DNA of 64,000 bases from positions 187,648 to 251,647 of the forward strand of contig CAYOUT010000003.1 of assembly GCA_964407215.1 (NCBI GenBank). Direction: 5' to 3'. The position numbers and the translations under genes are program-made. This DNA is from an uncultured Anaerolineales bacterium. Lineage in GTDB: Bacteria; Chloroflexota; Anaerolineae; UBA1429. This document shows positions 1 to 42,391 of this stretch, in pieces (position 1 is the stretch's first letter; each line of letters begins with the position of its first letter). The notes beneath the pieces were generated by a model. That model had not been told where the DNA came from. It saw only the letters and a program-made list of their open reading frames with translations, and did not search any database.

Positions 1-278
1 TCAGGGCTTTGCCCCTCGATCCGCTCAAAGAAGGGGGACATTTCCGCTTGCCAGCGAGCGTTCACCTCGCGTTGCGCCATGCCGGCTCTCGCCGCCTCGA
101 AATCCTCGGTCTCCAGATAGCCAAAGAGCAGGCCGTCCTCTTGTAAAAAGAGGGAGTAGTTGTGCCAGCCCGTCTCACGTAGAGCCTGCTGCATATCTGG
201 CCAGACCGCTGCGTGGCGCCTCTTGTATTCCTCGATATGCTCTTTTTTGACCTTGAGAATGAATGCGATGCGCTCCAT
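1..278 (-). CDS. rhaM: L-rhamnose mutarotase family protein (3' end runs off the window)
   Basis: Not in the ORF track. Manual translation from ATG at 278 (RBS GGGAG): MERIAFILKVKKEHIEEYKRRHAAVWPDMQQALRETGWHNYSLFLQEDGLLFGYLETEDFEAARAGMAQREVNARWQAEMSPFF. The Y.RRH..VWP...GW.NYSLF and VN.RWQ..M motifs are typical of RhaM. Confidence 0.85.
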   Translation of the reverse strand, partial: MERIAFILKVKKEHIEEYKRRHAAVWPDMQQALRETGWHNYSLFLQEDGLLFGYLETEDFEAARAGMAQREVNARWQAEMSPFFERIEGQSP

Positions 279-384
279 GTTCTGTCTCCCTTGCGGTTTG
301 TATGTGTTGGGTACGTTCTGGCTCGTAGCCAGTCTCCCGGTGCGCCATCTTGGCGCAGAGGATGCGGTTGTACGGGGCGGTACT

Positions 385-1086
385 CTACCAATGATCGGAG
401 GGCGCAGACTGTGCCTTCTCAGCCAAGTTGCGTAGCTTGACTGTTGCCTCCGCCAGGCTCATCCCGTGCGTAAACAGGCTCGAAGTTCCACCTACCAGTA
501 AATTGGCTCCTGCGGCGACCATACGCGCCGCATTCTCCCAAGACACGTTGCCATCCACTTGGATATCCACCTGCAGGCCGTGCGAGTCGAACAGCCGGCG
601 CGCATCAGCGATCTTTTGCAGGGTGGCCGGCACCAGCCTCTGTCCCACAAAGCCGGGGTTGACTGTCATGATGAGCAAGAGATCGAGGTCCTCTAGCACA
701 TAGTCCAGTGTGTGTAGCGATGTAGCGGGATTCAGAGCCACACCGGCCTTGATTCCCAGGCTGCGGATGGCGGCCAGCGTGCGCTGAAGGTGAACGCAAG
801 CCTCCTGGTGCACCACGAGGATATCTGCACCGGCCTCCACAAAAGTCTCTAAATAGCGCTCTGGCCTCTCGATCATGAGGTGTACATCGAGGGGGATGGA
901 ACTGGAGCGATGCACAAGACGTGCGATGTCGGGGCTCAGTGCCAGATTGGGGACAAAGGTGCCGTCCATGACATCGATGTGCAAATAGTCCACGCCAGCC
1001 CTCTCCATAGCGCGCAGATCCCGTTCGAGGTGCAGGAAATCCGCGCAGGCCAACGAGGCGCAAATCCGGATTGGCGGGCGCGTCAC
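385..1086 (-). CDS. rpe: Ribulose-phosphate 3-epimerase family protein (Rpe/AlsE-like)
   Basis: Motifs SLACAD, HIDVMDGTFVPN, DVHLM, MTVNPGF, VDG. Substrate may differ from ribulose-5-P given the operon context. Confidence 0.88.
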   Translation of the reverse strand: MTRPPIRICASLACADFLHLERDLRAMERAGVDYLHIDVMDGTFVPNLALSPDIARLVHRSSSIPLDVHLMIERPERYLETFVEAGADILVVHQEACVHLQRTLAAIRSLGIKAGVALNPATSLHTLDYVLEDLDLLLIMTVNPGFVGQRLVPATLQKIADARRLFDSHGLQVDIQVDGNVSWENAARMVAAGANLLVGGTSSLFTHGMSLAEATVKLRNLAEKAQSAPSDHW

Positions 1087-2147
1087 GCGGTGTCCCTCGT
1101 GCTCTGAGGGTGTACGATGACCTTCATGCCCGCGTGCCCCTCCGCCGCAGCCAGAGCCTCGCCTATGCGCTCCAGTGGGAAGGTGTGGCTAATGTACTCT
1201 TTGCCCTGGATCACTCCGGCAGCGAGTAATTCCAGCGCTAAGCGATGTTGTCGGGGTACACTGCCATGGGAGCCGGTGACCATGAGCTCCTTATAGTGCA
1301 CTAGATTGCTATCCAGCTCGATGGGGGGCGATCCCTTGGGGAGTCCACCAAAGAAGTTGATGCGGCCGCGGTTGCACACCATTTGCAGGGCTTGTGCGTG
1401 GGTCTCCACCGATGAGTTGGCGGTGATCACCACGTCAGCGCCCTCGCCGCCCGTCGCTTCCAGCACCGCAGCAACGGGGTCCACGTCTTGCGTGCAGATC
1501 ACCTGGTCTGCGCCGCCCAGGCGGTAGGCCACATCCACACGCGCCCGCGATCGTTGCACCCCCAGCACACGCATGGCGCCAAAGGAACGCGCTAGTCGCA
1601 TCATCATGCACCCAGCAGGGCCCGCGCCGATCACTACCACCACATCGCCTAGTGTGATGTTGCAGAGCTCTAGGCCGTTGATACAACAAGCCAATGGTTC
1701 CGCCAGGGTGGCTTCATCGTAGCTCAGGCCGTCCGGGATATGGTGTACCGCCCCATAGCGCACAGTAGTGCCGTTCAGCGGCATACGTTCTGCAAAACCA
1801 CCGGGGAACTGGTAGCCGATGGCATAGTTGATGGCGCAATTATTGCCCAGCCCTTCACGGCACCAGCGACATTCGCCACAGGGAACGTCCGCACCGGTGG
1901 CTACGCGATCTCCCACTTTGAAGCGAGTCACTCGACTGCCGACGGCGATCACTTCGCCGGCGATCTCGTGCCCGATGATCTGAGGTGGTGTGACGCGCGG
2001 GTTGCCGTGGTGTAGAATACGGATATCCGATCCGCATACCGCACAGGCGTGCACCTTAAGAAGGAGGCTCTCCTCGTCCGGCAAGGTGGGGTCGGGCACC
2101 TCTCGAACGGCAATACGGTCCAGGCTCTCCAATACAGCGGCTTTCAT
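1083..2147 (-). CDS. Zn-dependent MDR alcohol/polyol dehydrogenase
   Basis: CGSD and GHE catalytic Zn ligands, structural Zn motif CGECRWC...C, GAGPAG Rossmann motif; ATGA overlap with the rpe-like gene. Confidence 0.92.
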   Translation of the reverse strand: MKAAVLESLDRIAVREVPDPTLPDEESLLLKVHACAVCGSDIRILHHGNPRVTPPQIIGHEIAGEVIAVGSRVTRFKVGDRVATGADVPCGECRWCREGLGNNCAINYAIGYQFPGGFAERMPLNGTTVRYGAVHHIPDGLSYDEATLAEPLACCINGLELCNITLGDVVVVIGAGPAGCMMMRLARSFGAMRVLGVQRSRARVDVAYRLGGADQVICTQDVDPVAAVLEATGGEGADVVITANSSVETHAQALQMVCNRGRINFFGGLPKGSPPIELDSNLVHYKELMVTGSHGSVPRQHRLALELLAAGVIQGKEYISHTFPLERIGEALAAAEGHAGMKVIVHPQSTRDTA

Positions 2148-2165
2148 CGTCGCTCAGTCCCCCTT

Positions 2166-3221
2166 CTAGGCTTTGTTGACCAACACCACCCGGTTGTAGA
2201 ATTCCACATGCGAGCGCATCATCTCCAGCGCGCTAACTCCTTCGGATAGAGGAACGCGGTGGGTGATGAGCGCCTTCAGGATCAGGCGTCCGGCCGCAAG
2301 CATTTCCAAGACCACGCGCCATTCATCCACTGGCAACGCGGCAAAGCGAGAGTTCCAGGTCCCCCTAATGGTGAGTTCTTTGCGTAGTATCTGAGACACT
2401 GTGGCTTGCGGCAGGGTGACGTCTCCAGCAGGGTTACCCATGAACACCACTCGCCCCAAAGGCCGCGCCATGCGCAGTGCTTGTTCGTAGGTCACACTGG
2501 CACCCGCTGCCTCGATCACCAGATCGGCGCCACGTCCGGCCGTCGCCTCCGAAACGACCGCTACCGGATCGCTCTCGCGCGCGTTGATGGCGTCTCCCAG
2601 GCTCATCTCTTCTACCACGCGCAGCTTGCAGGCGTCGATATCCACTAGCAGCACGCGCCCCGCGCCGGTCAATCGCGCCCACTGTGCGACGAGCAAGCCG
2701 ATGGGCCCCGCTCCCAGCACCACTACCGTATCGCCCGGCTCCGGATCGCCCTGGCGTATAGCGTGTAGGGCCACAGCGGCGGGCTCTGTGAGAGCGGCCT
2801 CCTCCAGATCGACGCCGTCGGGCAGCGGGATCAGGTTGGTCTGTGGCGCACGCACATACTCGGCAAAACCACCATCACTACGCGACCCCAAATAATCGTA
2901 GGCTATGCACTGGCCGTAGGCTCCGATCTCGCAGTAGGCGCACTGGCGACAGGGGATAAGGGGCTTGATGGTGACCCGCTCGCCCACATGTCGCGGACCG
3001 CTTCCTACAACTTGCTCCACCACTCCCGCCAGTTCGTGGCCGGGGATGAGTGGGAAGCGATAAGTGCCGTCCTCATAGACTCGTGGTAGATCCGAGCCGC
3101 ACACGCCGGCCGCCGCGACGCGTACCAATGCCTCCCCTTCGCGGGGCTCGGGCACTGGTACTCTCTCCAGTCGGAGATCACCGATGGTGTGGAGGACCAA
3201 GGCTTGCATCCGTTCGGGCAT
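2166..3221 (-). CDS. Zn-dependent MDR dehydrogenase, galactitol-1-phosphate 5-dehydrogenase (GatD)-like
   Basis: CGSD, PGHE, CRQCAYC...C, GAGPIG; the segment YDYLGSRSDGGFAEY resembles GatD-type enzymes. Confidence 0.88.
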   Translation of the reverse strand: MPERMQALVLHTIGDLRLERVPVPEPREGEALVRVAAAGVCGSDLPRVYEDGTYRFPLIPGHELAGVVEQVVGSGPRHVGERVTIKPLIPCRQCAYCEIGAYGQCIAYDYLGSRSDGGFAEYVRAPQTNLIPLPDGVDLEEAALTEPAAVALHAIRQGDPEPGDTVVVLGAGPIGLLVAQWARLTGAGRVLLVDIDACKLRVVEEMSLGDAINARESDPVAVVSEATAGRGADLVIEAAGASVTYEQALRMARPLGRVVFMGNPAGDVTLPQATVSQILRKELTIRGTWNSRFAALPVDEWRVVLEMLAAGRLILKALITHRVPLSEGVSALEMMRSHVEFYNRVVLVNKA

Positions 3222-3247
3222 TGACGGTCTCCCCTCGATGGTGTGGG

Positions 3248-4201
3248 CTAGGCCCTACGCCCTGGCTCGTGCTCGGCCAAGACATCGGGGCTCCAAGGGC
3301 CATCCACGGGCAAGAGCTGGCGCCAATACTCGGCTGACGCCTTGAGCTCCGGCACGACCAACGGCTCCACCTCGAACCGTTCGCGATGAGAGATCTCGAA
3401 AGCCAAAAAGACTTCTTCCGCGCCGCTCTCGTATAGCGTCGTCAGCGTGCGCAGGGGGTCGATGATGCCCTGGGCGTTGTATTCTGCAGTAAAAGGCCAA
3501 TGGCGGCTGTGCCCGTGTTCCGTTTGCTGCAGATGAACAATACCAGCATCGCGCCCTAACGCACTCAGCCAGTCGTACGGATCCCGCTCGCTCGGATGCG
3601 GCGCGTGACCGATATCCAGGCAAAAGCGCATCGGCACACCGGCATTCTCGTTGACGCGCTGCAAGAGCTCACGCGCCCCCGCGATGGTATCCCCCATCTC
3701 GCGTGGAATCGACATGGTCTCGAAAAAGATGTACTCCAACCCCACCTCGCTGGCATAATGTGACAACTCTTGCCAGAGGCGGATGGCATCGTCCACGCGT
3801 TGCCGATAGCTGGTGGGGTCGGCGAGATCCTCCACCGAGAGGATACCAAAGTGGCTGCCCACTGCCCGCGCCCCAAGGCGCGCCGCCAGGCTGGCAAAGC
3901 GCCGAAACCAATCGCGCCAAGCTCGCCTGAGCTCCGGATACGGATACATAAAGTGATTCACGCGGGTGTAGGTGCTGGTCATTAACGAGTGGACGCTGAT
4001 TCGATACCGATCGAGCGCCAGTTGAATCCGCTCCATCTCGGCCTCGAGCACGTATTCGGGCCAGAAGGGGTTGAGCAAATCAGCCACCAGCTGCACGCTG
4101 TACAGACCAAACTCCTCGGCCACGAGGCGCGCCCACTCATCGGGTTCTGGAAAGCGGTTAGTGGCAAAGCCGAGATTTGTTCCGAGGGTAAATGTTGTCA
4201 T
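3248..4201 (-). CDS. TIM-barrel sugar-phosphate epimerase, EryC (D-erythrulose-1-phosphate 3-epimerase)-like
   Basis: Start chosen at MTTFTLG (ATG 4201). Motifs NRFPEP, LNPFWP, TRVNHF, ETMSIPREMGDTI, LDIGH, HLQQ, HWPFTAEYNAQGIIDP parallel Brucella EryC as recalled. Confidence 0.75.
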   Translation of the reverse strand: MTTFTLGTNLGFATNRFPEPDEWARLVAEEFGLYSVQLVADLLNPFWPEYVLEAEMERIQLALDRYRISVHSLMTSTYTRVNHFMYPYPELRRAWRDWFRRFASLAARLGARAVGSHFGILSVEDLADPTSYRQRVDDAIRLWQELSHYASEVGLEYIFFETMSIPREMGDTIAGARELLQRVNENAGVPMRFCLDIGHAPHPSERDPYDWLSALGRDAGIVHLQQTEHGHSRHWPFTAEYNAQGIIDPLRTLTTLYESGAEEVFLAFEISHRERFEVEPLVVPELKASAEYWRQLLPVDGPWSPDVLAEHEPGRRA

Positions 4202-4461
4202 ACTATGTGCTAGACTCCACAATGAATGCGCCGCTAGAGGGTTCGTTAGCCTCCTGTAGGCTGTTGGCTCGCTCGGGGACTGTCAGGGCGAGCGATAAAG
4301 GGCTTCCCTCAGGATACACGATACATGTGCTCCATGCAAACTGCCATCTGTGAAAGAGCTTCATTTGACCTCCCTATATGCACAGGTACCATATACTCTA
4401 GCGATGTTGCTGCGGGTTCCTTATGCGGAAGCCGGCGAGTGTTGTTGGCCAGGAGCGGGTG

Positions 4462-5772
4462 ATGGTGGTGAAAAGAGCGTTTGCTGCGGGGCTTTTGCTG
4501 ATTGTGGCCATTCTCGTGCTGATTGCAGCAGGTAGCCTCCGTTACGGAGGCCCAGGAGGCCTATTGCTGCGCGTGCAGGCCGAGTTCAACCGGCGGCCGC
4601 AAGAGTTGCTTGTGCCGACACCTTTGCCCACCGCAGAAGTGCCCGCCCCTTCTGTTGCCCCCACGGAGTGCGCCTGCGGTGCCGCCTCGGCAACGCCCGT
4701 AGCTGCCAGCCCTTCGGCTACGATGGAAACACCTGCCGATCCGGAGGCGACCTCCACTACAGAGCTACCGACGATCACCGAGGAACCCAACCCCACTGCC
4801 GAGGCCACTCAGGCTGCAGCGGCTCCAGCTGTGGAACTCACCGGCTTTGCGCACGAGTGGCAGGGCTGGAACAACTGCGGCCCCGCCACGTTGGCAATGT
4901 ATCTGAGTTACTATGGGAACACAGAGAACCAGACCGATATCGCCAACGTCGTCAAAGAGAACAAGGATGATAAACACGTCGGTGCTGACGAGCTCGTCGA
5001 GTACGTGCGCTCTCGCGGCTTCCAAGCTATCCTTCGAGTGAACGGCGATGCCCAGAAGGTAAAATCGCTGCTGAACGAAGGAATCCCTGTGATGGTTGCA
5101 ACCTGGAACGAACAAGAGCCGGGTGACGGCGCGGGGCACTATCGCCTCATCACAGGCTATGATGACGCTTTGGGCGAGTGGATCCTGTACGACTCTCTCT
5201 TGGCTACTGCTAGAGGGATTACGACCCCTTACGAGGGCATTCGTATATCGTACGAAGAGCTAGATGAGCTGTGGGAGGTGCTGAACTACAAGTATATCCT
5301 GGTATACAGAGAGGATCATGCGGTTGCCGTGCCGAATATCCTGGGCGAGGACATGGATGATGCGCTCATGTGGGCTGATGCACTAGCGGCGTCGCAAGCT
5401 GCTGTCGAACAGCGGCCTGAGAACCCTTTTGTTTGGTTCAATCTGGGTACCAGTCTGGTGGCCGCTGAGCGATGGGACGAGGCGGCTGCAGCTTATGATC
5501 GCGCCCGCCAGATTGGCTTGCCCTGGAGGATGCTTTGGTACCAGTTCGAGCCGCTGCAAGCCTACTATGAAGCCGGCCGCTTACAGGAGGTTGTTGCCCT
5601 GGCTGACGCGACTATGGCACACACTAAGGATCTGGAGGAGCTTTATTACTGGAAAGGGATGGCCTTACAGGCGCTGGGCGATCCCGATAGCGCCCGCGCT
5701 AATCTGGAGCGCGCTACGCAGCTGAGGCCCAGTTTCACAAGCGCTTCGGAAGCTCTACAGGCGCTGGAGTAG
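4462..5772 (+). CDS. Membrane-anchored C39-like cysteine peptidase with C-terminal TPR repeats
   Basis: N-terminal TM helix, Pro/Thr/Ala linker, WNNCGPATLAM (catalytic Cys), GHYRLITGYD (His), YDS, then TPR-like helices (WFNLG..., LYYWKGMALQALG). Confidence 0.8.
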   Translation: MVVKRAFAAGLLLIVAILVLIAAGSLRYGGPGGLLLRVQAEFNRRPQELLVPTPLPTAEVPAPSVAPTECACGAASATPVAASPSATMETPADPEATSTTELPTITEEPNPTAEATQAAAAPAVELTGFAHEWQGWNNCGPATLAMYLSYYGNTENQTDIANVVKENKDDKHVGADELVEYVRSRGFQAILRVNGDAQKVKSLLNEGIPVMVATWNEQEPGDGAGHYRLITGYDDALGEWILYDSLLATARGITTPYEGIRISYEELDELWEVLNYKYILVYREDHAVAVPNILGEDMDDALMWADALAASQAAVEQRPENPFVWFNLGTSLVAAERWDEAAAAYDRARQIGLPWRMLWYQFEPLQAYYEAGRLQEVVALADATMAHTKDLEELYYWKGMALQALGDPDSARANLERATQLRPSFTSASEALQALE

Positions 5773-5826: not shown

Positions 5827-6588
5827 ATGTCGGCGCTCACAGTCAGCCAAAGAACGACACCACGGAGCCCTATGATTTCACCTTCCGGCACAGCCCCCGA
5901 GAGCATCGGTACACGCAAAGAGAACTCACTCCATGCCGCGCTCAAGACCTGGTACTCGCGGCCGGGTGACCTTCTCGAGGCCCCAGTGGATGATTTTATC
6001 GTCGATATTCTGCGGGGCGATACGATCATCGAGATCCAGACGCGCAACTTTGGGGCGCTGAGGGCCAAGCTTGCGCAGCTTTTGGAGCGATACCCCGTTC
6101 GTCTGATCCACCCCGTCGCGCACGAGAAATGGATTGTGCGGCTGGCTGCGGATGGCCACACTCGCTTAGGTCGTCGCAAATCTCCCAAGCGGGGATCGGC
6201 TTTGGAGGTGTTTCGCGAGTTGGTCTATCTGCCGGAACTCTTGCTTCATGCCAACTTTTCGCTCGAAATAGTGCTCACGCAGGAGGAGGAGGTTCGTTGC
6301 CAGGACGGGCGGGGCAGTTGGCGGCGCCAGGGGTGGAGCATCCTGGATCGACGGCTACTCCAAGTGGTCGATTGTGTGGAGCTGAAGGATGTCGGCGCCT
6401 GTCGGTGCCTCCTGCCATCGTCTCTGTCTCAGCCCTTCACGAGCAGCGATCTGGCAGAGGCCCTGGGAGAACGGCGCGCTTTGGCCCAGAAGATGCTCTA
6501 CTGCTTGCGCAAAATGCATGTGGTACACACAGCCGGCAAGCGCGGGCGCTATCGGCTCTACACCGTGATACAACACAAAGGGGTCTAG
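5827..6588 (+). CDS. Hypothetical protein, putative PD-(D/E)XK nuclease fold with C-terminal winged-helix-like segment
   Basis: SLHAALK...VDILRGDTIIEIQT (D...ExQ variant motif); C-terminal FTSSDLAEALG...LYCLRKM...GKRGR. Start uncertain (5827 or 5872). Confidence 0.55.
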   Translation: MSALTVSQRTTPRSPMISPSGTAPESIGTRKENSLHAALKTWYSRPGDLLEAPVDDFIVDILRGDTIIEIQTRNFGALRAKLAQLLERYPVRLIHPVAHEKWIVRLAADGHTRLGRRKSPKRGSALEVFRELVYLPELLLHANFSLEIVLTQEEEVRCQDGRGSWRRQGWSILDRRLLQVVDCVELKDVGACRCLLPSSLSQPFTSSDLAEALGERRALAQKMLYCLRKMHVVHTAGKRGRYRLYTVIQHKGV

Positions 6589-6680: not shown

Positions 6681-7700
6681 CTAGAGCGCAGCTATAATCG
6701 CTTCCGCCATCTCGCGGGTGCCTACTGCTGTAGGATCGTTGCGGTCGGTCTTTAGGTCGTAAGTAACCTGTTTCCCCTCTGCGATAACCTTCTCCACTGC
6801 TCGGTCGATCCGATCCGCCGCGTCAATCTCGCCCAAGAAGCGCAGCATCAGTGTCCCACTGCGGATGGTTGCTGTGGGGTTGACTTTGTTGCGCCCGGTG
6901 TATTTGGGGGCAGAGCCGTGCACCGGCTCGAACACAGCGATATCGTCGCCAATATTGGCTCCCGGGGTCACCCCCAAGCCACCCACTAACCCAGCGCATA
7001 CATCGCTCACGATATCGCCATACAGGTTGGGCAATACCAGCACATCGTATTCGTGCGGTCTCTGTACAAGCTGCATACACATATTGTCCACGATGCGATC
7101 GTTAAAGTCGATGTCGGGATACTCGGCCGCCACCTGACGCGCAGTGTTCAAGAACAGCCCGTCCGTCAGCTTCATGATGTTGGCTTTGTGCACCGCGGTC
7201 ACCAGCTTGCGGCCGTTGGCTTGGGCGTATTCGAAGGCAAAGCGTACGATGCGCTCGCTGGCCTTGTGCGTGATGATACGAATCGCTTCCGCGGCTTGGC
7301 CGGGAATCACATCGTGCTCGATGCCAGAGTACAAGCACTCGGTGTTCTCGCGCACGACGATGAGGTCTACGCCACGATAGGGTGCGGGCACCCCTTCGAA
7401 GCTCTTGGCGGGGCGCAAGTTGGCGTACAAGTCCAGCTCCTTGCGAATGGCCACGTTGACGCTGCGGAAACCCTTGCCCACTGGTGTGGTGATAGGCCCT
7501 TTAATACCCACGCGGTTGCGCCGGATGGAATCCAGCACGTGCTCAGGCAAGGGTGTGCCGTATTTGTCGATGACGGCCTCGCCAGCCTCCTGAACATCCC
7601 AGTCGATGCGCACACTCGTCGCCTCGATGACTCGCCGCATAGCATCGGCTACCTCGGGCCCGATGCCGTCGCCGGGGATTAGCGTTACCGTGTACGTCAT
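6681..7700 (-). CDS. icd: Isocitrate/isopropylmalate dehydrogenase family protein (probable NAD-dependent isocitrate dehydrogenase)
   Basis: [44 protein letters not shown] motifs; co-transcribed with aconitase. Confidence 0.8.
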
Positions 7701-7732: not shown

Positions 7733-9658
7733 TCAGGCTGTCGCCTTGATATAGTTCAACAAGCCGCCCGCGAGTATGATCCCAGTCTGACGTGCAGACA
7801 GGTCATAGTGCACGGCGATGTCGAACCCCCGTGTTTCATTGCGCACCACCAACGGGGTGCCAGCCTGTAGAGACTCGCGCACCCCATTCACACGCAACAT
7901 GTCGCCCTGTTGGCAGCGATCGTAATCGGCGGGGTCGGCAAAGGTCAGCGGCAAAATGCCAAAGTTGATGAGATTGGCCTCGTGAATCCGCGCAAAGCTC
8001 TTGGTGAGCACCGCTTTGACGCCCAGGTACATCGGCACCAGGGCGGCATGTTCCCGGCTCGAGCCCTGGCCATAGTTCTCGCCGCCCAACACAAAGCCGC
8101 CCCCCACTCTTTTGGCGCGCGAGGCGAACTCGGCGTCCAGCCTAAAGAAGGCGAACTCGCTCATGGCAGGGATATTGGAGCGGAGTGGCAGCACTTGCGC
8201 GCCGGCGGGCATGATATCGTCCGTGGAGACGTTGTCTCCGGCCACTAGAAGGATCTCCCCTTGTAGCTCGCTCTCGAGTGGGCCGCGGGTGGGTAGCGGC
8301 TTGATGTTCGGTCCACGCACAATCTCCACGCTTGAGCCATTCGCCAAAGGCGGTACGACCATGTTGTCGTCGAGCAGGAAGGACGCCGAAACGGAGATAG
8401 CCGGTGGCTCGCCCAAGGAGCGCGGATCTGTGAACACGCCGCGAACGGCTGCAGCTGCACACACTTGGGCGCTCGCGAGGTATACTTGGGCGTCAGCAGT
8501 GCCGCTCCGCCCGCGAAAATTGCGGTTGAAAGATCGGAGCGAGACCGCGCCGCTGGCCGGGGCTTGCCCCATGCCGATGCATGGGCCGCACCCCGCATCG
8601 AGGATACGCGCGCCTGCCGCAATCAGATCGGTTAGGGCGCCGCTTTGGGAGATCATGGTCAGCACTTGTTTGCTACCGGGGCTTACAGTGAGCGATACAT
8701 CCGGATGAACCGATTGGCCGCGGAGCATGGCGGCCACTGTCTCAAGGTCCTCGATGGAGGAGTTGGTGCAGCTTCCGATGCACACCTGGTTCACGGGTTG
8801 ACCGATCAGGTCGCGCACTGGTACTACATTGTCGGGACTGTGCGGGCAAGCCACCAGCGGCTCCAGTTGAGAGAGGTCAATCTCTATGGTCTCGTCATAC
8901 AACGCATCCACATCGGCTGATAGAGGCCGCCAGTCGCTCTCGCGCCCTTGTGCGGCCAGGAACTGACGCGTGATCTGGTCGCTCGGAAAGATCGAACTGG
9001 TGGCGCCCAACTCGGCCCCCATATTGGTGATAGTTGCACGCTCAGGAACACTGAGAGTCGCCACACCCGGGCCACCATATTCGACCACTTTGCCCACCCC
9101 GCCTTTGACGGAGAGTCTGCGCAGCAATTCGAGGATCACATCCTTGGCTGCGACCCAGGGGGGTAGCTCGCCGAGCAGGCGTACGTGCAGCACTTTGGGT
9201 GTCGTGATATAGAACGGTGCGCCGGCCATGGCCACAGCCACGTCCAGGCCGCCCGCGCCGATGGCCAACATCCCCAAGCCGCCACCGGTGGGCGTGTGAC
9301 TGTCGGAACCCAAGAGGGTCTTGCCTGGTGCACCAAAGCGCTCCAGATGCACTTGGTGGCAGATGCCATTGCCGGGCCGCGAAAAGTATAGGCCATAATG
9401 GGCGGCCACCGTCTGGAGATAGCGATGGTCGTCGGCGTTGCGGTAATCGGCTTGCAGCATATTGTGGTCCACATAGCTTACCGACAACTCTGCCTTGACG
9501 CGATCCAGACCCAACGTCTCGAACTGAAGATAGGCCATGGTGCCCGTGGCATCCTGGGTGAGCGTCTGATCGATGCGCAAGCCCATTTCCGCTCCCGGCT
9601 CCATGCGGCCGGATACCAGATGCTCTCGTATGATCTTGTGCGTGAGATTGTGGCCCAT
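7733..9658 (-). CDS. Aconitate hydratase (single-chain, short type)
   Basis: Start at MGHNLTHK (ATG 9658). QDATG, DHN, GICHQVH, DSHT, IGSCTN and CGPCIG [4Fe-4S] ligands; swivel domain with NYGQGSSREHAA. Confidence 0.9.
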   Translation of the reverse strand: MGHNLTHKIIREHLVSGRMEPGAEMGLRIDQTLTQDATGTMAYLQFETLGLDRVKAELSVSYVDHNMLQADYRNADDHRYLQTVAAHYGLYFSRPGNGICHQVHLERFGAPGKTLLGSDSHTPTGGGLGMLAIGAGGLDVAVAMAGAPFYITTPKVLHVRLLGELPPWVAAKDVILELLRRLSVKGGVGKVVEYGGPGVATLSVPERATITNMGAELGATSSIFPSDQITRQFLAAQGRESDWRPLSADVDALYDETIEIDLSQLEPLVACPHSPDNVVPVRDLIGQPVNQVCIGSCTNSSIEDLETVAAMLRGQSVHPDVSLTVSPGSKQVLTMISQSGALTDLIAAGARILDAGCGPCIGMGQAPASGAVSLRSFNRNFRGRSGTADAQVYLASAQVCAAAAVRGVFTDPRSLGEPPAISVSASFLLDDNMVVPPLANGSSVEIVRGPNIKPLPTRGPLESELQGEILLVAGDNVSTDDIMPAGAQVLPLRSNIPAMSEFAFFRLDAEFASRAKRVGGGFVLGGENYGQGSSREHAALVPMYLGVKAVLTKSFARIHEANLINFGILPLTFADPADYDRCQQGDMLRVNGVRESLQAGTPLVVRNETRGFDIAVHYDLSARQTGIILAGGLLNYIKATA

Positions 9659-9899
9659 GAGGGGTCCTTTCCTGATTATGCTGCTCGCCGCAGCTCGGCC
9701 TACAGCGTGGCATGATGTGTTGCGGGTCGGTGGCGTCTCATGGGCCGCCACCAGATAGGTCAGCACACAGACGCGCTATAGGATCCGTGAAAACGGCGGG
9801 GGTTGATCCTCCACGACGAGGGCATGGATACGAATATGGCCAACCGAGGAGAAAAGCCACCGACCTATTATGCACGAGGGCACTACGGAGTACAAATTG

Positions 9900-11727: not shown

Positions 11728-14196
11728 CTAGCTGAGCGATTCCTCCAGCAAGTCAAGCGGTACCGGGACCCCGCCATCTATAGGCAGCGCCAACGTGAAC
11801 ACCTCGTGCGCTCGTACGTCGTGGGTCCAGCAACGGTCCAGAGCGGGGGAGGTCAGCGTTATACGCGTCGGTTCACCCGACGCCTCGTACCCTCGCACCA
11901 GCAGGCGGTCTCCATCCTCTGCCAGCTTGACGGTGCTGAGCACGATACTCTCTGGGGCGGCTCGAAGAAGCGATAAAGTGTGCCACGGGCCCTCGTGTGG
12001 TGTGGCGGGAGCCGCTATCAAGGGCTCTTGCAGCTCGTAGCTGCGTCGCCCCGGCGAGACTGCACGCCAATCGCCCGTGTGAGGAATCAGGACGTAACGC
12101 ACCACTTGCTCGCCTTGATCGACGAAATGATATGAAACGCCGGGCACTACCCGTCGTGGATCGTGGAACGCGTAAATCGGGCTGCGAAGCACACTCAACC
12201 GTAGCTCGCCGTCCAACGCATCGTAGCCGTATTTGCTATCGTTCAGCAGGCAGAGGCCGCGGCGGCCGGAAGTGGCTTGGCCGGTGAGGTCCACCCAACC
12301 CTGGCAAGGCTCCTCCTCCCCGTTGGCCTGTCGCGACACCCAGCCGTAAGGCGCCGATGAGGCTACGACGCCCCCCGAGATGGCCAGCGGAAAGGCCAGC
12401 TTGAGCATCTTGAACTGCTCGTGCCAATCTACCGTCATAGTGACCTCGATGGCTGCTGATCCTGTACGTAGAGCGTACTCTTGCACGATGCTCGATGATC
12501 CCCACGTGCTGCGCACCCTCAACGCTGCTCCAGTGGGGCCGTTGTGGAGGAGTTCCGCTGGGCTTACAGACTGGAAGGAGCCGAGCACATCTCGGAAATT
12601 GACTATATCATGGCTCCAGGTATCGCTGTCGTCGTGGATTACTAGCGGCAGGCAGGCCGGGCCGGAGAGCAATTCCTCGTGTCGCTGCAAATCACGGATG
12701 CTCGCCAGCGCGCCCGTCTCGGGATCCACACGTAGGCGATAGTACTCGTTCTCGATGGTGTCAGCGAACACTGTCGGCGGCTCTTCTGCTGGCGGATCCG
12801 TCTCGGGGATCGAGACGTACAATGGGCAGGCTCCGAGCGCTGGCACCGTCACCAGGGCCTCGACGTGTGCGATGTATGTGTTGAGATCCAGCTCTACGTC
12901 TAGCAACTGGCAAGGCACCAGGTTGCCATCCGTATCCTCGATGCGCGGTGTGCCCGGATAGCGCTCTCCGCGAAAATCGTGGCGCCAACCGCCCATGGGT
13001 AGTGCCAACCGCACCGTATCGGTGCGTTCCCAGGGAAGAGTGTTCCACACCAGCACGGGGTGGTCGCGATCCAATACCTCAACCTTGGCCGCCAATGCGG
13101 TGAGAGCTTGGTTTTGTACCGAGATGGCTAAGGCTCTTGCGCGCTCATAGTCCTCCCAGGCTTCGTCGTACGACTCCCGGATGGACGTCCCGGCCATGAT
13201 GTCGTGGAACTGGTTGAACAGTACCTCCTCCCAGGCCTTTTGAAGCTGCGGCTGGGCGCTCGGTGTATCGCACAGCAGGGTGGCCCACGACGCCAGCCTC
13301 TCCGCCTGCATGAGGCCGTGCTCTGCGTAGCGGTTCTCTTGCTTCACTCGCGATAGGGCTGTGTAACACCCTCGCGCGTGGTGCTGCAGTTCGTCGTGCA
13401 ACACCGGCCAATCGCTGGACAGTTGCCGCACACGATCAAAATAGGCATCCGGCGAGGAGAATACAGGGATCGCCCCGACATCCGCGTCCAGGGTGTCGAC
13501 GAGAGCCTGTACATTGCGCCGCGTGGGCCCTCCGCCATGGTTGCCTACGCCGTAGAAACACATCACCATCGGCAAGCCCTCAGGCGCTTCGTCGGCCGCG
13601 GCGCGCATCCGCTCTAACACATCGGCATTGTCCGGGCTGCCATAGTGTAGCGGCGGGCGGCAAGCCAACACTCTCGCGCCTCCCGGCGCTTCCCACCAGA
13701 AGGGGCGATTCGGCAGGTCTTTCTCGTGGGGGCCTGGCCTAAAGAAAACATAGTGTTCTAGCCCCGCTAGCTTGAGGAGTTGTGGCAGCGTCCCCGCGTG
13801 CCCAAAGGAATCCACATTGTAGCCGACGCGTGCGCGCCGCCCAAAGTGCTCTTGTAGGAAGCGCTGTCCGTACAGGCCGTGGCGCGCAAAAGACTCTCCA
13901 CTGGGGATATTGCAGTCGGGCTGTAGCCACCAGCCGTTCACGAGCACCCAACGTCCCTCTGCCACGGCCTGTTGGATGGCGGCGTACAACTCCGGATCAT
14001 CTTCTTGCACCCAGCGGTAAGTGACAGCTCCACCGCTTGTGAAAACGTAAGCGTCGAACTCTCGAATCAGAGCGATGGCGGTGTGATAGGTGGATTGTAC
14101 CTCGGCGCGTCCCTCGCTGAGGGGCCATAGCCATACGGGGTCGATGTGAGCGTTGCCAACCATATGCACGGTGACTCGGTCCGGTCGTTCCGTCAT
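11728..14196 (-). CDS. GH38 alpha-mannosidase family glycoside hydrolase
   Basis: GNAHIDPVW (Zn ligands), NVDSFGH (nucleophile Asp), YGVGNHGGGPT, NQFHDIMAGTS; RBS GGAGGA before ATG 14196. Confidence 0.92.
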   Translation of the reverse strand: MTERPDRVTVHMVGNAHIDPVWLWPLSEGRAEVQSTYHTAIALIREFDAYVFTSGGAVTYRWVQEDDPELYAAIQQAVAEGRWVLVNGWWLQPDCNIPSGESFARHGLYGQRFLQEHFGRRARVGYNVDSFGHAGTLPQLLKLAGLEHYVFFRPGPHEKDLPNRPFWWEAPGGARVLACRPPLHYGSPDNADVLERMRAAADEAPEGLPMVMCFYGVGNHGGGPTRRNVQALVDTLDADVGAIPVFSSPDAYFDRVRQLSSDWPVLHDELQHHARGCYTALSRVKQENRYAEHGLMQAERLASWATLLCDTPSAQPQLQKAWEEVLFNQFHDIMAGTSIRESYDEAWEDYERARALAISVQNQALTALAAKVEVLDRDHPVLVWNTLPWERTDTVRLALPMGGWRHDFRGERYPGTPRIEDTDGNLVPCQLLDVELDLNTYIAHVEALVTVPALGACPLYVSIPETDPPAEEPPTVFADTIENEYYRLRVDPETGALASIRDLQRHEELLSGPACLPLVIHDDSDTWSHDIVNFRDVLGSFQSVSPAELLHNGPTGAALRVRSTWGSSSIVQEYALRTGSAAIEVTMTVDWHEQFKMLKLAFPLAISGGVVASSAPYGWVSRQANGEEEPCQGWVDLTGQATSGRRGLCLLNDSKYGYDALDGELRLSVLRSPIYAFHDPRRVVPGVSYHFVDQGEQVVRYVLIPHTGDWRAVSPGRRSYELQEPLIAAPATPHEGPWHTLSLLRAAPESIVLSTVKLAEDGDRLLVRGYEASGEPTRITLTSPALDRCWTHDVRAHEVFTLALPIDGGVPVPLDLLEESLS

Positions 14197-41380: not shown

Positions 41381-42391
41381 CTACCCCATCTCTGGCGGTC
41401 CCCACCAAGCCTCGAAAAAAGCGCGCACGTTCTCCAAAGGGCAATCCTTATTGAACTCGGCCTGGCCGATACAGCCGCCGCGGTCATCCCACAGCGCATC
41501 TTTTACTCGGGCTACGGCGGCGCGTACGTCATCCGGGGTGCCAAAGGGGAGCACGTTTTGGCGATCCAGCTCTCCCCAGAAGGTGATTCGCCCCTTGAAC
41601 CGCCGTCCGATCTCCTCGATAGGCATAGTGAAGAGCTGTGAGTTGATGGCGTCCACACCCAGTTCGATGAGGTGCTCATAGATCGCCATGATATAGCCGT
41701 CCGAGTGCATCAACACGAACTTGTTGTGGGCTTTGGCCAGGTCACAATAGTCCTTGTAGAGCGGTTTGAAATACTCGACCCACATCTGCGGCGAGATCAG
41801 TAAGGCTCTGCTGGAACCCCAGTCATCCATAAAGGTCACTGCATCCACATCGGTTTTAACGACATACTCGAGGTGCCGCATATAGTAATCGTGGATCATG
41901 TCCAGCAGAGCGAACACCTCGCTGACGCCCCAGGCCAGATCCAGGTAGACATTCTGTGAACCCCGCACGAACTGCAAGCGCTCAAAAGGGCGCGGAAGGC
42001 CCAGGGTGGTGAACTTGGTGCTTTCAGCACAGGTGCGGTTCACGTTCTCAAAACCGACGCCGAGCAGGTCGTAGGGCGGCCTCCAGGTGGCCAGTTTGCT
42101 CCAGTCATCGATGGCGGGATGTTTGACCTCGCCGATCATGCCAGCCTGGATGTTGACCCAACGGCTGCCCCAAGCGTCGGTCCACTCGCCGGGCTCGTAG
42201 AGAGGCGACTCGTCCGCTGGGTCGCGGTACCCGCTGGACCCAAAGTCGCTAGGGTACTGACGTAAAATGATCTTCAAAGACTCCTCGCGCCCGTAAAAAG
42301 CAGCGGGCAGGAGCCAAATGTCTCTCCCAGGCCGGTCCACCCCTTCAAAGCGCAGCGTGCGGGAAATCCGTTCTCTGGATGTGAGCCCCAT
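41381..42391 (-). CDS. Uroporphyrinogen decarboxylase / MtaA-CmuA methyltransferase-like family protein
   Basis: TSRERI..TLRFE..DR, DAWG..W, FERLQFVRG, FMDDWG....LLISP..W....KP.Y, MHSDG, ITFWGELDRQ..LPFGTP..V. Confidence 0.8.
   Translation of the reverse strand: MGLTSRERISRTLRFEGVDRPGRDIWLLPAAFYGREESLKIILRQYPSDFGSSGYRDPADESPLYEPGEWTDAWGSRWVNIQAGMIGEVKHPAIDDWSKLATWRPPYDLLGVGFENVNRTCAESTKFTTLGLPRPFERLQFVRGSQNVYLDLAWGVSEVFALLDMIHDYYMRHLEYVVKTDVDAVTFMDDWGSSRALLISPQMWVEYFKPLYKDYCDLAKAHNKFVLMHSDGYIMAIYEHLIELGVDAINSQLFTMPIEEIGRRFKGRITFWGELDRQNVLPFGTPDDVRAAVARVKDALWDDRGGCIGQAEFNKDCPLENVRAFFEAWWGPPEMG

Follow-up and report, generated by a model that had tools for sequence, protein, structure and literature searches.

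A conserved four-enzyme cassette that may serve L-rhamnose catabolism in an uncultured Anaerolineae bacterium and in other bacteria

Introduction

Which sugar is processed by an operon whose enzyme families no characterised pathway appears to combine? The question is raised by a 64,000-nucleotide stretch of DNA (contig CAYOUT010000003.1, positions 187,648 to 251,647; hereafter the window) from an uncultured Anaerolineae bacterium of sludge and bioreactors. Five minus-strand genes, read from position 4201 to position 1, fill the left 4.2 kb of the window and encode an EryC-like epimerase, two zinc-dependent medium-chain dehydrogenases/reductases (MDR-A and MDR-B), an Rpe/AlsE-family 3-epimerase and a RhaM-family mutarotase. 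A preliminary description made from the sequence alone had assigned these five families, and Pfam, NCBIfam and PDB matches uphold all of the assignments. The first four genes, referred to below as the cassette, are a widespread, uncharacterised module for sugar catabolism whose enzymes belong to known families and whose function we approach through genomic context and inference.

L-Rhamnose, the sugar to which this context points, is a major constituent of pectin, bacterial cell walls and plant glycosides. Its established routes are a phosphorylated one, running through RhaA, RhaB and either RhaD or RhaEW, and non-phosphorylated oxidative ones. Under anaerobic conditions the phosphorylated route leads to L-lactaldehyde and 1,2-propanediol and shapes cross-feeding in guts and digesters, with propionate and microcompartments involved.

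Conservation of the cassette

A profile scan with one genome per species returned 192 relatives of the EryC-like protein. The best 80 loci were kept, the window proteins and a set of marker proteins were placed on them by tblastn, and 81 non-redundant loci were counted. The full set of EryC-like gene, MDR-A, MDR-B and epimerase was present in 48 of the 81, nearly always in that order, and a partial cassette in nine, several of them owing to contig ends. Since the order is kept in loci from four phyla, the clustering is not due to chance. Full cassettes were found in Chloroflexota, in Bacillota (Cohnella, Paenibacillus, Clostridia, Oscillospiraceae, Christensenellaceae and Lachnospiraceae), in Treponema and in one Armatimonadota genome; the named cultured carriers are Cohnella phaseoli, Paenibacillus baekrokdamisoli and Faecalicatena contorta. 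MDR-B is the most conserved member, with 52–78% identity across phyla.

The remaining EryC-like genes occur in other contexts. Ten loci, all from Paenibacillus or Cohnella (L041, L058, L067, L071, L073, L074, L079, L080, L081 and L084), combine the EryC-like gene with a 409-aa PfkB-family kinase and a FucI-like isomerase, and in 14 loci the gene stands alone (for example L099, where the context is uninformative). Cassette and PfkB trio occur together in three genomes (L065/L067, L066/L081 and L049/L084), so the EryC-like family is split into paralogues with different partners. The trio is probably another uncharacterised route from an aldose through a ketose phosphate to its 3-epimer; its FucI-like isomerase weakly matches the sulfoquinovose isomerase SftI.

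Three variant loci (L038, L042 and L063) carry the EryC-like gene with one or two MDR genes and without the Rpe-like gene; on stereochemical grounds, a substrate of the L-fucose type would need the first epimerase only. L038 further contains an ABC transporter, a XylB-like kinase and a distant RhaM-like gene, and a PDB search with the product of its 413-aa gene gave no informative match.

Linkage to L-rhamnose genes

A rhamnose-specific gene (RhaA or RhaI, RhaB, RhaM, or an alpha-L-rhamnosidase of family GH78) was located within 10 kb of the cassette in 24 of the 48 loci, often in the same operon. The corresponding counts in the other EryC-like contexts were zero of ten for the PfkB trio and two of 14 for the lone EryC-like genes. 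RhaI directly follows the epimerase gene in ten Cohnella and Paenibacillus loci (625 and 612 bits on TIGR02635, cut-off 531), and a GH78 gene lies immediately upstream of the cassette in four Paenibacillus loci. In Faecalicatena contorta, genes for an ABC sugar transporter are followed by the cassette and then by RhaB (545 bits, cut-off 528). RhaB also comes after the cassette in four Anaerolineae loci (498 bits in L009, with the others 84–97% identical to it) and at the contig end in a fifth. In the clostridial locus L043, RhaA (PF06134, 590 bits) separates the EryC-like gene from MDR-A, and the epimerase gene is followed by RhaM; RhaA is found downstream of the cassette in L051, L030 and L057, and RhaM ends the operon in the window, in L013 and in L027/L091.

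The window's RhaM-like protein scores 104 bits on PF05336 (cut-off 23.4) and is 36% identical to E. coli RhaM. Its EEYKRRH segment aligns with EEYQRRH of the E. coli enzyme, and Tyr18 and His22, which we take to be catalytic in E. coli RhaM, are both matched. The preliminary description had treated this gene as an odd extra; it is in fact the best clue to the substrate. Because L-rhamnose genes travel with the cassette, we assign the cassette to L-rhamnose or a closely related 6-deoxy-L-hexose, with a probability of roughly two in three (about 0.65). DeoR-type regulators, which usually respond to sugar phosphates, flank 16 cassette loci, and GntR-PBP regulators flank 13.

The aldolase of the phosphorylated route was sought in the same loci. 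Searches by tblastn with E. coli queries detected no RhaD-, GatY- or FbaB-type aldolase in any locus. RhaEW is a fusion of a class II aldolase with an SDR domain (PMC3870299), and no such PF00596–SDR fusion was present among the Pfam-annotated neighbours of the loci.

A final cleavage enzyme was also sought among genes near the cassettes, and the candidates were set aside. Genes of FSA or transaldolase size proved to encode cupins, RNase HII, a component of an ECF transporter and similar proteins. The one class II aldolase-family gene, in the L009 group, is an AraD-type L-ribulose-5-phosphate 4-epimerase gene in a convergent operon, which it shares with a gene for a 568-aa uridine-kinase/PRK-like protein in L009, L012, L015 and L016. 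The "amidohydrolase" encoded after RhaB in L009 is NagA (322 bits, above the cut-off) and is probably unrelated; in the same four loci RhaB is followed by NagA and then by a bicupin, and a PDB search with the cupin was uninformative.

Two further observations concern gene content around the cassette. Between RhaA and MDR-A, L043 contains a 128-aa C-terminal fragment of an FGGY kinase (12431–12817), 31% identical to E. coli RhaB, either the possible remains of a rhamnulokinase or an artefact of the assembly. In termite-gut Treponema, a 690-aa GHL6/alpha-L-fucosidase-like glycosidase is encoded directly upstream of the cassette (L068, 4653–6725; L083, 7942–9996), a hint that the substrate may come from a glycan containing deoxyhexose.

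Predicted activities of the four enzymes

The EryC-like protein matches PF01261 (56 bits), and Brucella EryC (PDB 4k3z) is by far its closest solved relative (E 3.7e-55, colinear, 35% identity over 292 aa). The PDB holds one other solved relative, the putative xylose isomerase 3qxb (E 3e-27); no further characterised PF01261 enzyme, UlaE, psicose epimerase, IolI and IolE included, gave a match at E 0.01 in this PDB search. Residues E161, D196, H223 and E269, which we presume from knowledge of the superfamily to be metal ligands, do not vary across the family alignment A1 and line up with the E, D, H and E of 4k3z. Judged by its sequence, the protein clearly falls into the same subfamily as EryC, and the preliminary grouping with EryC rather than with unrelated xylose-isomerase-like proteins holds. 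EryC inverts C3 of a 2-ketose 1-phosphate, erythrulose 1-phosphate.

MDR-A consists of ADH_N and ADH_zinc_N domains (Pfam), and its top match in both NCBIfam and the PDB is galactitol-1-phosphate 5-dehydrogenase (E 4e-63 against 4a2c; 35% identity to E. coli GatD). On the GatD equivalog model NF007642, with a cut-off of 550 bits, MDR-A reaches 240 and MDR-B 106 bits, both below it. GatD oxidises a hexitol 1-phosphate at C5 and so produces a ketose 6-phosphate. Both MDRs retain the catalytic and structural zinc ligands, and those of MDR-A (C41, H62, E63 and E146; C91, C94, C97 and C105) are invariant. MDR-B has the same two domains, and its top matches are uncharacterised MDRs, IolM, Tdh and sorbitol-dehydrogenase types, all far below the respective cut-offs.

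The two dehydrogenases differ at the end of the Rossmann strand beta2, where Asp is typical of NAD-dependent enzymes and Arg/Ser of NADP-dependent ones such as the ketose reductase 1e3j. MDR-A reads VDID at this point (IDIS in GatD), and 52 of its 55 orthologues carry the Asp; among MDR-B orthologues, 43 of 47 carry the motif [Q/N]-R-S-R-x-R and lack the Asp. In three loci from rabbit-gut Oscillospiraceae and Lachnospiraceae (L072, L075 and L085) the motifs are swapped between MDR-A and MDR-B, which leaves one of each type, and L053 has Asp in both proteins. The preliminary description had pictured two oxidations. The opposite motifs of nearly all cassettes suggest instead one NADPH-dependent reduction and one NAD+-dependent oxidation, which together would make a redox-neutral isomerisation by way of a polyol.

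The fourth enzyme matches PF00834 with 230 bits. It carries the motifs PGFVGQ, VDGN and GGTSSLF in place of the PGFGGQ, VDGG and short GSA[IV]F loop of canonical Rpe. The beta8 loop is one residue longer than in E. coli Rpe and five canonical Rpe structures (including 1tqj, 7u5y and 7sbj), and its length and GTSxLF pattern are those of E. coli AlsE. A Cys in the N-terminal substrate-lid motif is likewise common to the cassette epimerases and AlsE. All 49 cassette epimerases share with E. coli AlsE a GF[A/V/T/Q/S]GQ motif, a VDGN-type motif, this Cys and the longer beta8 loop; the most divergent sequences, in L072, L075 and L085, read PG[FY]SGQ and [AV]DG[HY].

Chan et al. are said to have reported in 2008 that the extra beta8-loop residue lets AlsE accept hexulose 6-phosphate. 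The AlsE-type loops point to a hexulose 6-phosphate substrate here as well, and the annotation "ribulose-phosphate 3-epimerase" is probably wrong for these proteins. With about 38% identity to E. coli Rpe and 36–37% to AlsE, the cassette epimerases are nearly equidistant from the two, which places them by sequence in a third clade of the Rpe/AlsE family. In L078 a true AlsE relative (54% identity) occupies the epimerase slot.

A tentative pathway

Taken together, the predicted activities can be arranged into a scheme in which the four cassette enzymes convert L-rhamnulose 1-phosphate into 1-deoxy-D-fructose 6-phosphate; we offer this scheme tentatively, as one that could well be wrong. RhaM would provide the suitable anomer of L-rhamnose, and an isomerase and a kinase encoded elsewhere would yield L-rhamnulose 1-phosphate. 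The EryC-like enzyme would then invert C3, after which the NADP-type MDR-B would reduce the C2 keto group to give a 6-deoxyhexitol 1-phosphate. The NAD-type MDR-A would oxidise C5, which turns the molecule end for end and would produce 1-deoxy-D-psicose 6-phosphate, and a final inversion at C3 by the AlsE-like epimerase would lead to 1-deoxy-D-fructose 6-phosphate. Each enzyme would thereby act on the type of substrate used by its closest characterised relative.

In Fischer projection, L-rhamnulose 1-phosphate has the C3 hydroxyl on the right and the C4 and C5 hydroxyls on the left. Reduction at C2 combined with oxidation at C5 would flip the ketose, with the old C4 becoming C3 and the old C3 becoming C4, and would give a 1-deoxy-2-ketohexose 6-phosphate. 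The flip without epimerases should result in the D-sorbo configuration, and reaching D-fructo from L-rhamnulose 1-phosphate should take exactly one epimerisation on each side of the flip. The substrate, the phosphorylation at entry, the order of the steps and the product are what we infer.

The module would stand in for the RhaD or RhaEW aldolase step, and a possible benefit is that L-lactaldehyde would be avoided. Whether this amounts to a third bacterial L-rhamnose route, independent of an aldolase and free of L-lactaldehyde, we consider doubtful at present. The product could be cleaved to glyceraldehyde 3-phosphate and hydroxyacetone by an enzyme of the FSA or short transaldolase type, which is chemically plausible; a recurrent URO-D-like gene would be an alternative candidate for the cleavage.

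A number of observations weigh against the assignment to L-rhamnose or against parts of the scheme. Half of the cassettes (24 of 48) have no rhamnose gene within 10 kb and stand alone with a regulator, and in the window operon RhaM is the sole rhamnose-specific gene. The full-length RhaM-like protein reaches 80.7 bits on the TIGR02625 equivalog model, whose cut-off is 99.6, and the kinase adjoining loci of the window type is XylB-like (219 bits), not RhaB, although non-orthologous FGGY rhamnulokinases such as RhaK exist (PMC3870299). The nearest characterised relatives of MDR-B use unphosphorylated substrates, and the epimerase scores 238 bits on the Rpe equivalog TIGR01163, above its cut-off of 212.6. 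No enzyme using 1-deoxy-fructose 6-phosphate was found near the cassettes in a screen of aldolases and of genes of FSA or transaldolase size. RhaD or RhaEW may be encoded elsewhere in the carrier genomes, beyond the loci compared. Finally, the stereochemical fit was recognised post hoc and is no proof, and the advantage of four enzymes over a single aldolase is unproven.

Alternative substrates

Two alternatives are each improbable in our view. The first follows the preliminary description, in which a polyol or rare-sugar operon (for allitol, altritol, galactitol or a pentitol) would reach fructose 6-phosphate or xylulose 5-phosphate by two oxidations and two C3 epimerisations. In that case known side activities, such as the conversion of D-allose into D-allulose, would explain why RhaM and the rhamnose isomerases were recruited. 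The affinities of the dehydrogenases agree with it, MDR-A being nearest to GatD and both MDRs resembling sorbitol, xylitol and arabinitol dehydrogenases; an AlsE-type epimerase could make fructose 6-phosphate directly from allulose 6-phosphate; and half of the cassettes lack a nearby rhamnose gene. Rhamnose isomerases of the Pseudomonas stutzeri type are, moreover, broad in specificity (PMC11485043). However, the neighbours of the cassette are L-rhamnose genes, and no phosphotransferase system (PTS), polyol transporter or polyol kinase accompanies it in any annotated locus. The opposed NAD/NADP motifs speak against two oxidations, and RhaB above its equivalog cut-off, RhaA, GH78 and RhaM are rhamnose-specific.

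The second alternative, to which we give a similarly small chance, retains L-rhamnose and changes the point of phosphorylation. Starting from free L-rhamnulose, the EryC-like enzyme and both MDRs would yield a 1-deoxy-ketohexose by way of a 6-deoxyhexitol, the neighbouring XylB-like FGGY kinase would phosphorylate its C6, and the AlsE-like epimerase would act last. XylB-like FGGY kinases do adjoin cassettes or their variants in L004, L010, L011, L013, L019, L020, L027, L038 and L069; the Cohnella and Paenibacillus operons contain RhaI without a kinase; and MDR-B is like ketose reductase and sorbitol dehydrogenase. E. coli XylB accepts 1-deoxy-D-xylulose as a substrate for phosphorylation, and L-rhamnulose is turned into 6-deoxy-L-psicose by D-tagatose 3-epimerase. 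Against this order of events, the nearest characterised relatives EryC and GatD use phosphorylated substrates, five loci have RhaB, the enzyme producing the 1-phosphate, within the operon, and regulators of the DeoR type usually sense sugar phosphates.

A pentose version is very improbable. In it RhaA and RhaB would turn L-lyxose into L-xylulose 1-phosphate, which would pass through L-ribulose 1-phosphate, ribitol phosphate and D-ribulose 5-phosphate to D-xylulose 5-phosphate, with a true Rpe as the last enzyme. The score of the epimerase above the TIGR01163 cut-off would agree with this, the rhamnose enzymes of E. coli mutants process L-lyxose (PMC11485043), and the product would require no additional special enzyme; the beta8 loop and motifs are nevertheless of the AlsE rather than the Rpe type, L-xylulose 1-phosphate could become xylulose 5-phosphate through xylitol phosphate with neither epimerase needed, L-lyxose is rare in nature, and GH78 and RhaM indicate rhamnose. 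A tetritol or tetrulose pathway, with a true EryC as the first enzyme and an MDR in the place of EryB, is hardly to be expected either: EryC is the sole close characterised relative of the first gene product, several homologues carry the name D-erythrulose 1-phosphate 3-epimerase in JGI and UniRef, and an FGGY kinase is nearby, yet the identity to EryC is just 35%, EryA, EryB, EryD, TpiA2 and RpiB were unseen in the annotated loci, an AlsE-type epimerase would have no role on four-carbon sugars, and the context is that of rhamnose.

Comparison with known systems

The assignment to L-rhamnose was set against the characterised pathways that each cassette family calls to mind. With the erythritol pathway of Brucella and Rhizobium (EryC, EC 5.1.3.38) the cassette shares a TIM-barrel subfamily, the E-D-H-E residues and the predicted C3 inversion of a 2-ketose 1-phosphate. 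Its partners are two MDRs and an AlsE-like epimerase, the likely substrate is a six-carbon deoxy sugar, and no member of the eryA, eryB, eryD, tpiA2/eryH or rpiB/eryI families was found in the annotated neighbourhoods of related loci. Because EryA, B, D, H and I are missing and the identity is 35%, the cassette is not an erythritol pathway. MDR-A has the zinc ligands, the NAD-type Asp and the proposed C5 oxidation of GatD from the E. coli galactitol pathway, but the gat PTS and the tagatose-bisphosphate aldolase (no GatY-type match in any locus) are absent, so that pathway does not apply either. With the E. coli D-allose pathway the cassette epimerase has in common AlsE's non-Gly GFxGQ motif, N-terminal Cys and longer beta8 loop; unlike AlsE itself it stays below the cut-off of the AlsE model NF007266 (198 bits against 271) while exceeding that for Rpe, and alsK, alsB, alsA, alsC and rpiB were not found near it; the cassette is not an allose pathway.

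The canonical L-rhamnose pathway is represented by RhaM in the window operon and, in related genomes, by RhaA or RhaI, RhaB and GH78 in or beside the cassette. The window operon differs in having no isomerase, kinase or aldolase; related loci have an isomerase or a kinase and never a RhaD-type aldolase, and four enzymes foreign to the pathway occupy the usual position of the aldolase. As the aldolase is missing, the cassette is not a canonical rhamnose operon.

In its proposed chemistry, the cassette resembles routes that convert an L-ketose or its phosphate into a D-ketose or its phosphate by reducing C2 and oxidising the penultimate carbon. In the L-sorbose pathway SorE reduces L-sorbose 1-phosphate to glucitol 6-phosphate, which glucitol-6-phosphate dehydrogenase converts into fructose 6-phosphate, and in the fungal L-arabinose route NADPH-dependent reductions alternate with NAD+-dependent oxidations, a pairing of cofactor types that the cassette shares. 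Unlike the L-sorbose route, the redox pair of the cassette is flanked by two different 3-epimerases, is tied to a 6-deoxy sugar and comes with no sorbose PTS. The pentitol-phosphate operons of Listeria and Enterococcus, which combine two oxidising MDR-type arabitol- or xylitol-phosphate dehydrogenases with Rpe, RpiB, transketolase and a PTS, resemble the cassette in clustering two MDRs with an Rpe-family epimerase; the cassette differs by its opposite cofactor motifs, EryC-like epimerase, rhamnose genes and lack of a PTS.

The preliminary view that no characterised pathway combines these families stands in the literature covered, namely open-access full texts and bioRxiv, where we found no description of the cassette. 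No erythritol, galactitol, allose or canonical rhamnose operon matches the set gene for gene. The four cassette enzymes go unmentioned both in a comparative analysis of rhamnose regulons (PMC3870299) and in a review from 2024 (PMC11485043).

Significance

If the proposed route operates, the aldolase would be replaced in about 48 species, and genome-based predictions of rhamnose use would change for bacteria of guts, termites, soil and sludge. The route would then have a wide distribution, which takes in anaerobic Chloroflexota, Clostridia, Paenibacillaceae and Treponema from termite guts. Four generic annotations ("sugar phosphate isomerase/epimerase", two "alcohol dehydrogenases" and "ribulose-phosphate 3-epimerase") would acquire functions, and a new deoxy-sugar phosphate would enter metabolism, with chemistry that may be useful in rare-sugar synthesis. 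Cleaving the product could also be the natural function of FSA or short transaldolase-type enzymes, or of the URO-D-like gene. Even with a different substrate, the cassette, the NAD/NADP pairing and the putative third Rpe/AlsE clade would be concrete targets in cultured carriers.

Operon layout and expression in the window

The five co-oriented genes, their coordinates and the truncation of the last one at the left edge of the window were confirmed (Table 1). The spacers measure 26 nt (3222–3247), 18 nt (2148–2165) and 106 nt (279–384), as had been described; the four-base overlap of MDR-B and the epimerase gene at 1083–1086, given as ATGA before, reads GTGA, a GTG start over a TGA stop. The EryC-like gene begins with ATG at 4201, with an alternative in-frame TTG at 4222.

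Table 1. Genes of the operon and the region upstream of it, in window coordinates
Feature	Coordinates	Strand	Remarks
EryC-like TIM-barrel epimerase, 317 aa	3248..4201	-	Operon gene 1; predicted ketose 1-phosphate 3-epimerase
MDR-A, GatD-like zinc dehydrogenase, 351 aa	2166..3221	-	NAD-type motif LLVDID; predicted hexitol-phosphate 5-dehydrogenase
MDR-B, zinc MDR, 354 aa	1083..2147	-	NADP-type motif GVQRSRAR; predicted ketose(-phosphate) reductase
Rpe/AlsE-family 3-epimerase, 233 aa	385..1086	-	GTG start; AlsE-type phosphate-binding loops
RhaM-family mutarotase, 92 of 106 codons in the window	1..278	-	Last operon gene; PF05336
Intergenic region upstream of the operon, before the divergent gene 4423-5772	4202..4422	.	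Contains a 53-codon open reading frame

Identical public contigs (L001, L002 and L003) extend the view beyond the window, and L001 and L002 contain all 106 codons of the RhaM-like gene. The operon itself includes no regulator, transporter, isomerase or kinase. The preliminary description had noted that kinase and transporter lie outside the window; to the left of position 1 an identical contig carries a convergent PGM/PMM-family mutase and an FGGY kinase, and the sequence that it covers there contains no transporter near the operon. The nearest relatives of the operon are in metagenome-assembled Anaerolineae genomes, at 76% identity and lower, and the sequence itself occurs in bioreactor, sludge, wastewater and biogas metagenomes.

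Contigs from four sludge metatranscriptomes span all five genes and all four gene junctions. The operon is therefore expressed in situ, although DNA carry-over in metatranscriptome libraries is possible, and the five genes are probably co-transcribed. The transcript contigs extend upstream to 4264–4286. A scan for promoters and terminators gave nothing exceeding chance, and the minus strand of 4202–4422 had no sigma-70-like site. Within this region, the minus-strand open reading frame at 4203–4364 stops one base ahead of the ATG of the EryC-like gene; it is annotated as a gene on two public contigs, has no Pfam match, and could be a leader peptide or spurious.

Neighbouring genes

In eight Anaerolineae loci the cassette is abutted by a convergent operon that encodes a mutase of the PGM/PMM family together with a XylB-like FGGY kinase and is frequently accompanied by a URO-D-like gene (L002, 8851–10919; L004, 13741–17553; L091, 14040–17847). 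In L010 and L011/L093 the same operon abuts the EryC-like gene alone, the MDRs and the epimerase being absent. The mutase to the left of the window reached no NCBIfam cut-off.

URO-D/MtaA-like TIM-barrel genes recur in or beside cassettes in several phyla. One lies inside the operon in L089 (13024–14034), and others were found in L004 (16546–17553), L013 (7101–8183) and L043 (17615–18778), as well as in L051, L053, L064, L086 and L087. The window contains a homologue at 41381–42391, 32% identical and 37 kb from the operon, and in L057 a gene for a CdhD-like corrinoid protein is nearby.

On the right flank, the genes between 4423 and 9766 are unrelated to the operon, and the flank is not kept in relatives. 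The divergent gene starting at 4423 encodes a 449-aa peptidase-C39-like/TPR protein with a Pro/Ala/Thr-rich N-terminal region. It is followed by genes for a DUF8091 protein (5827–6588), an isocitrate/isopropylmalate dehydrogenase-family protein (6681–7700) and, as called from the translation alone, an aconitase-like protein (7733–9766).

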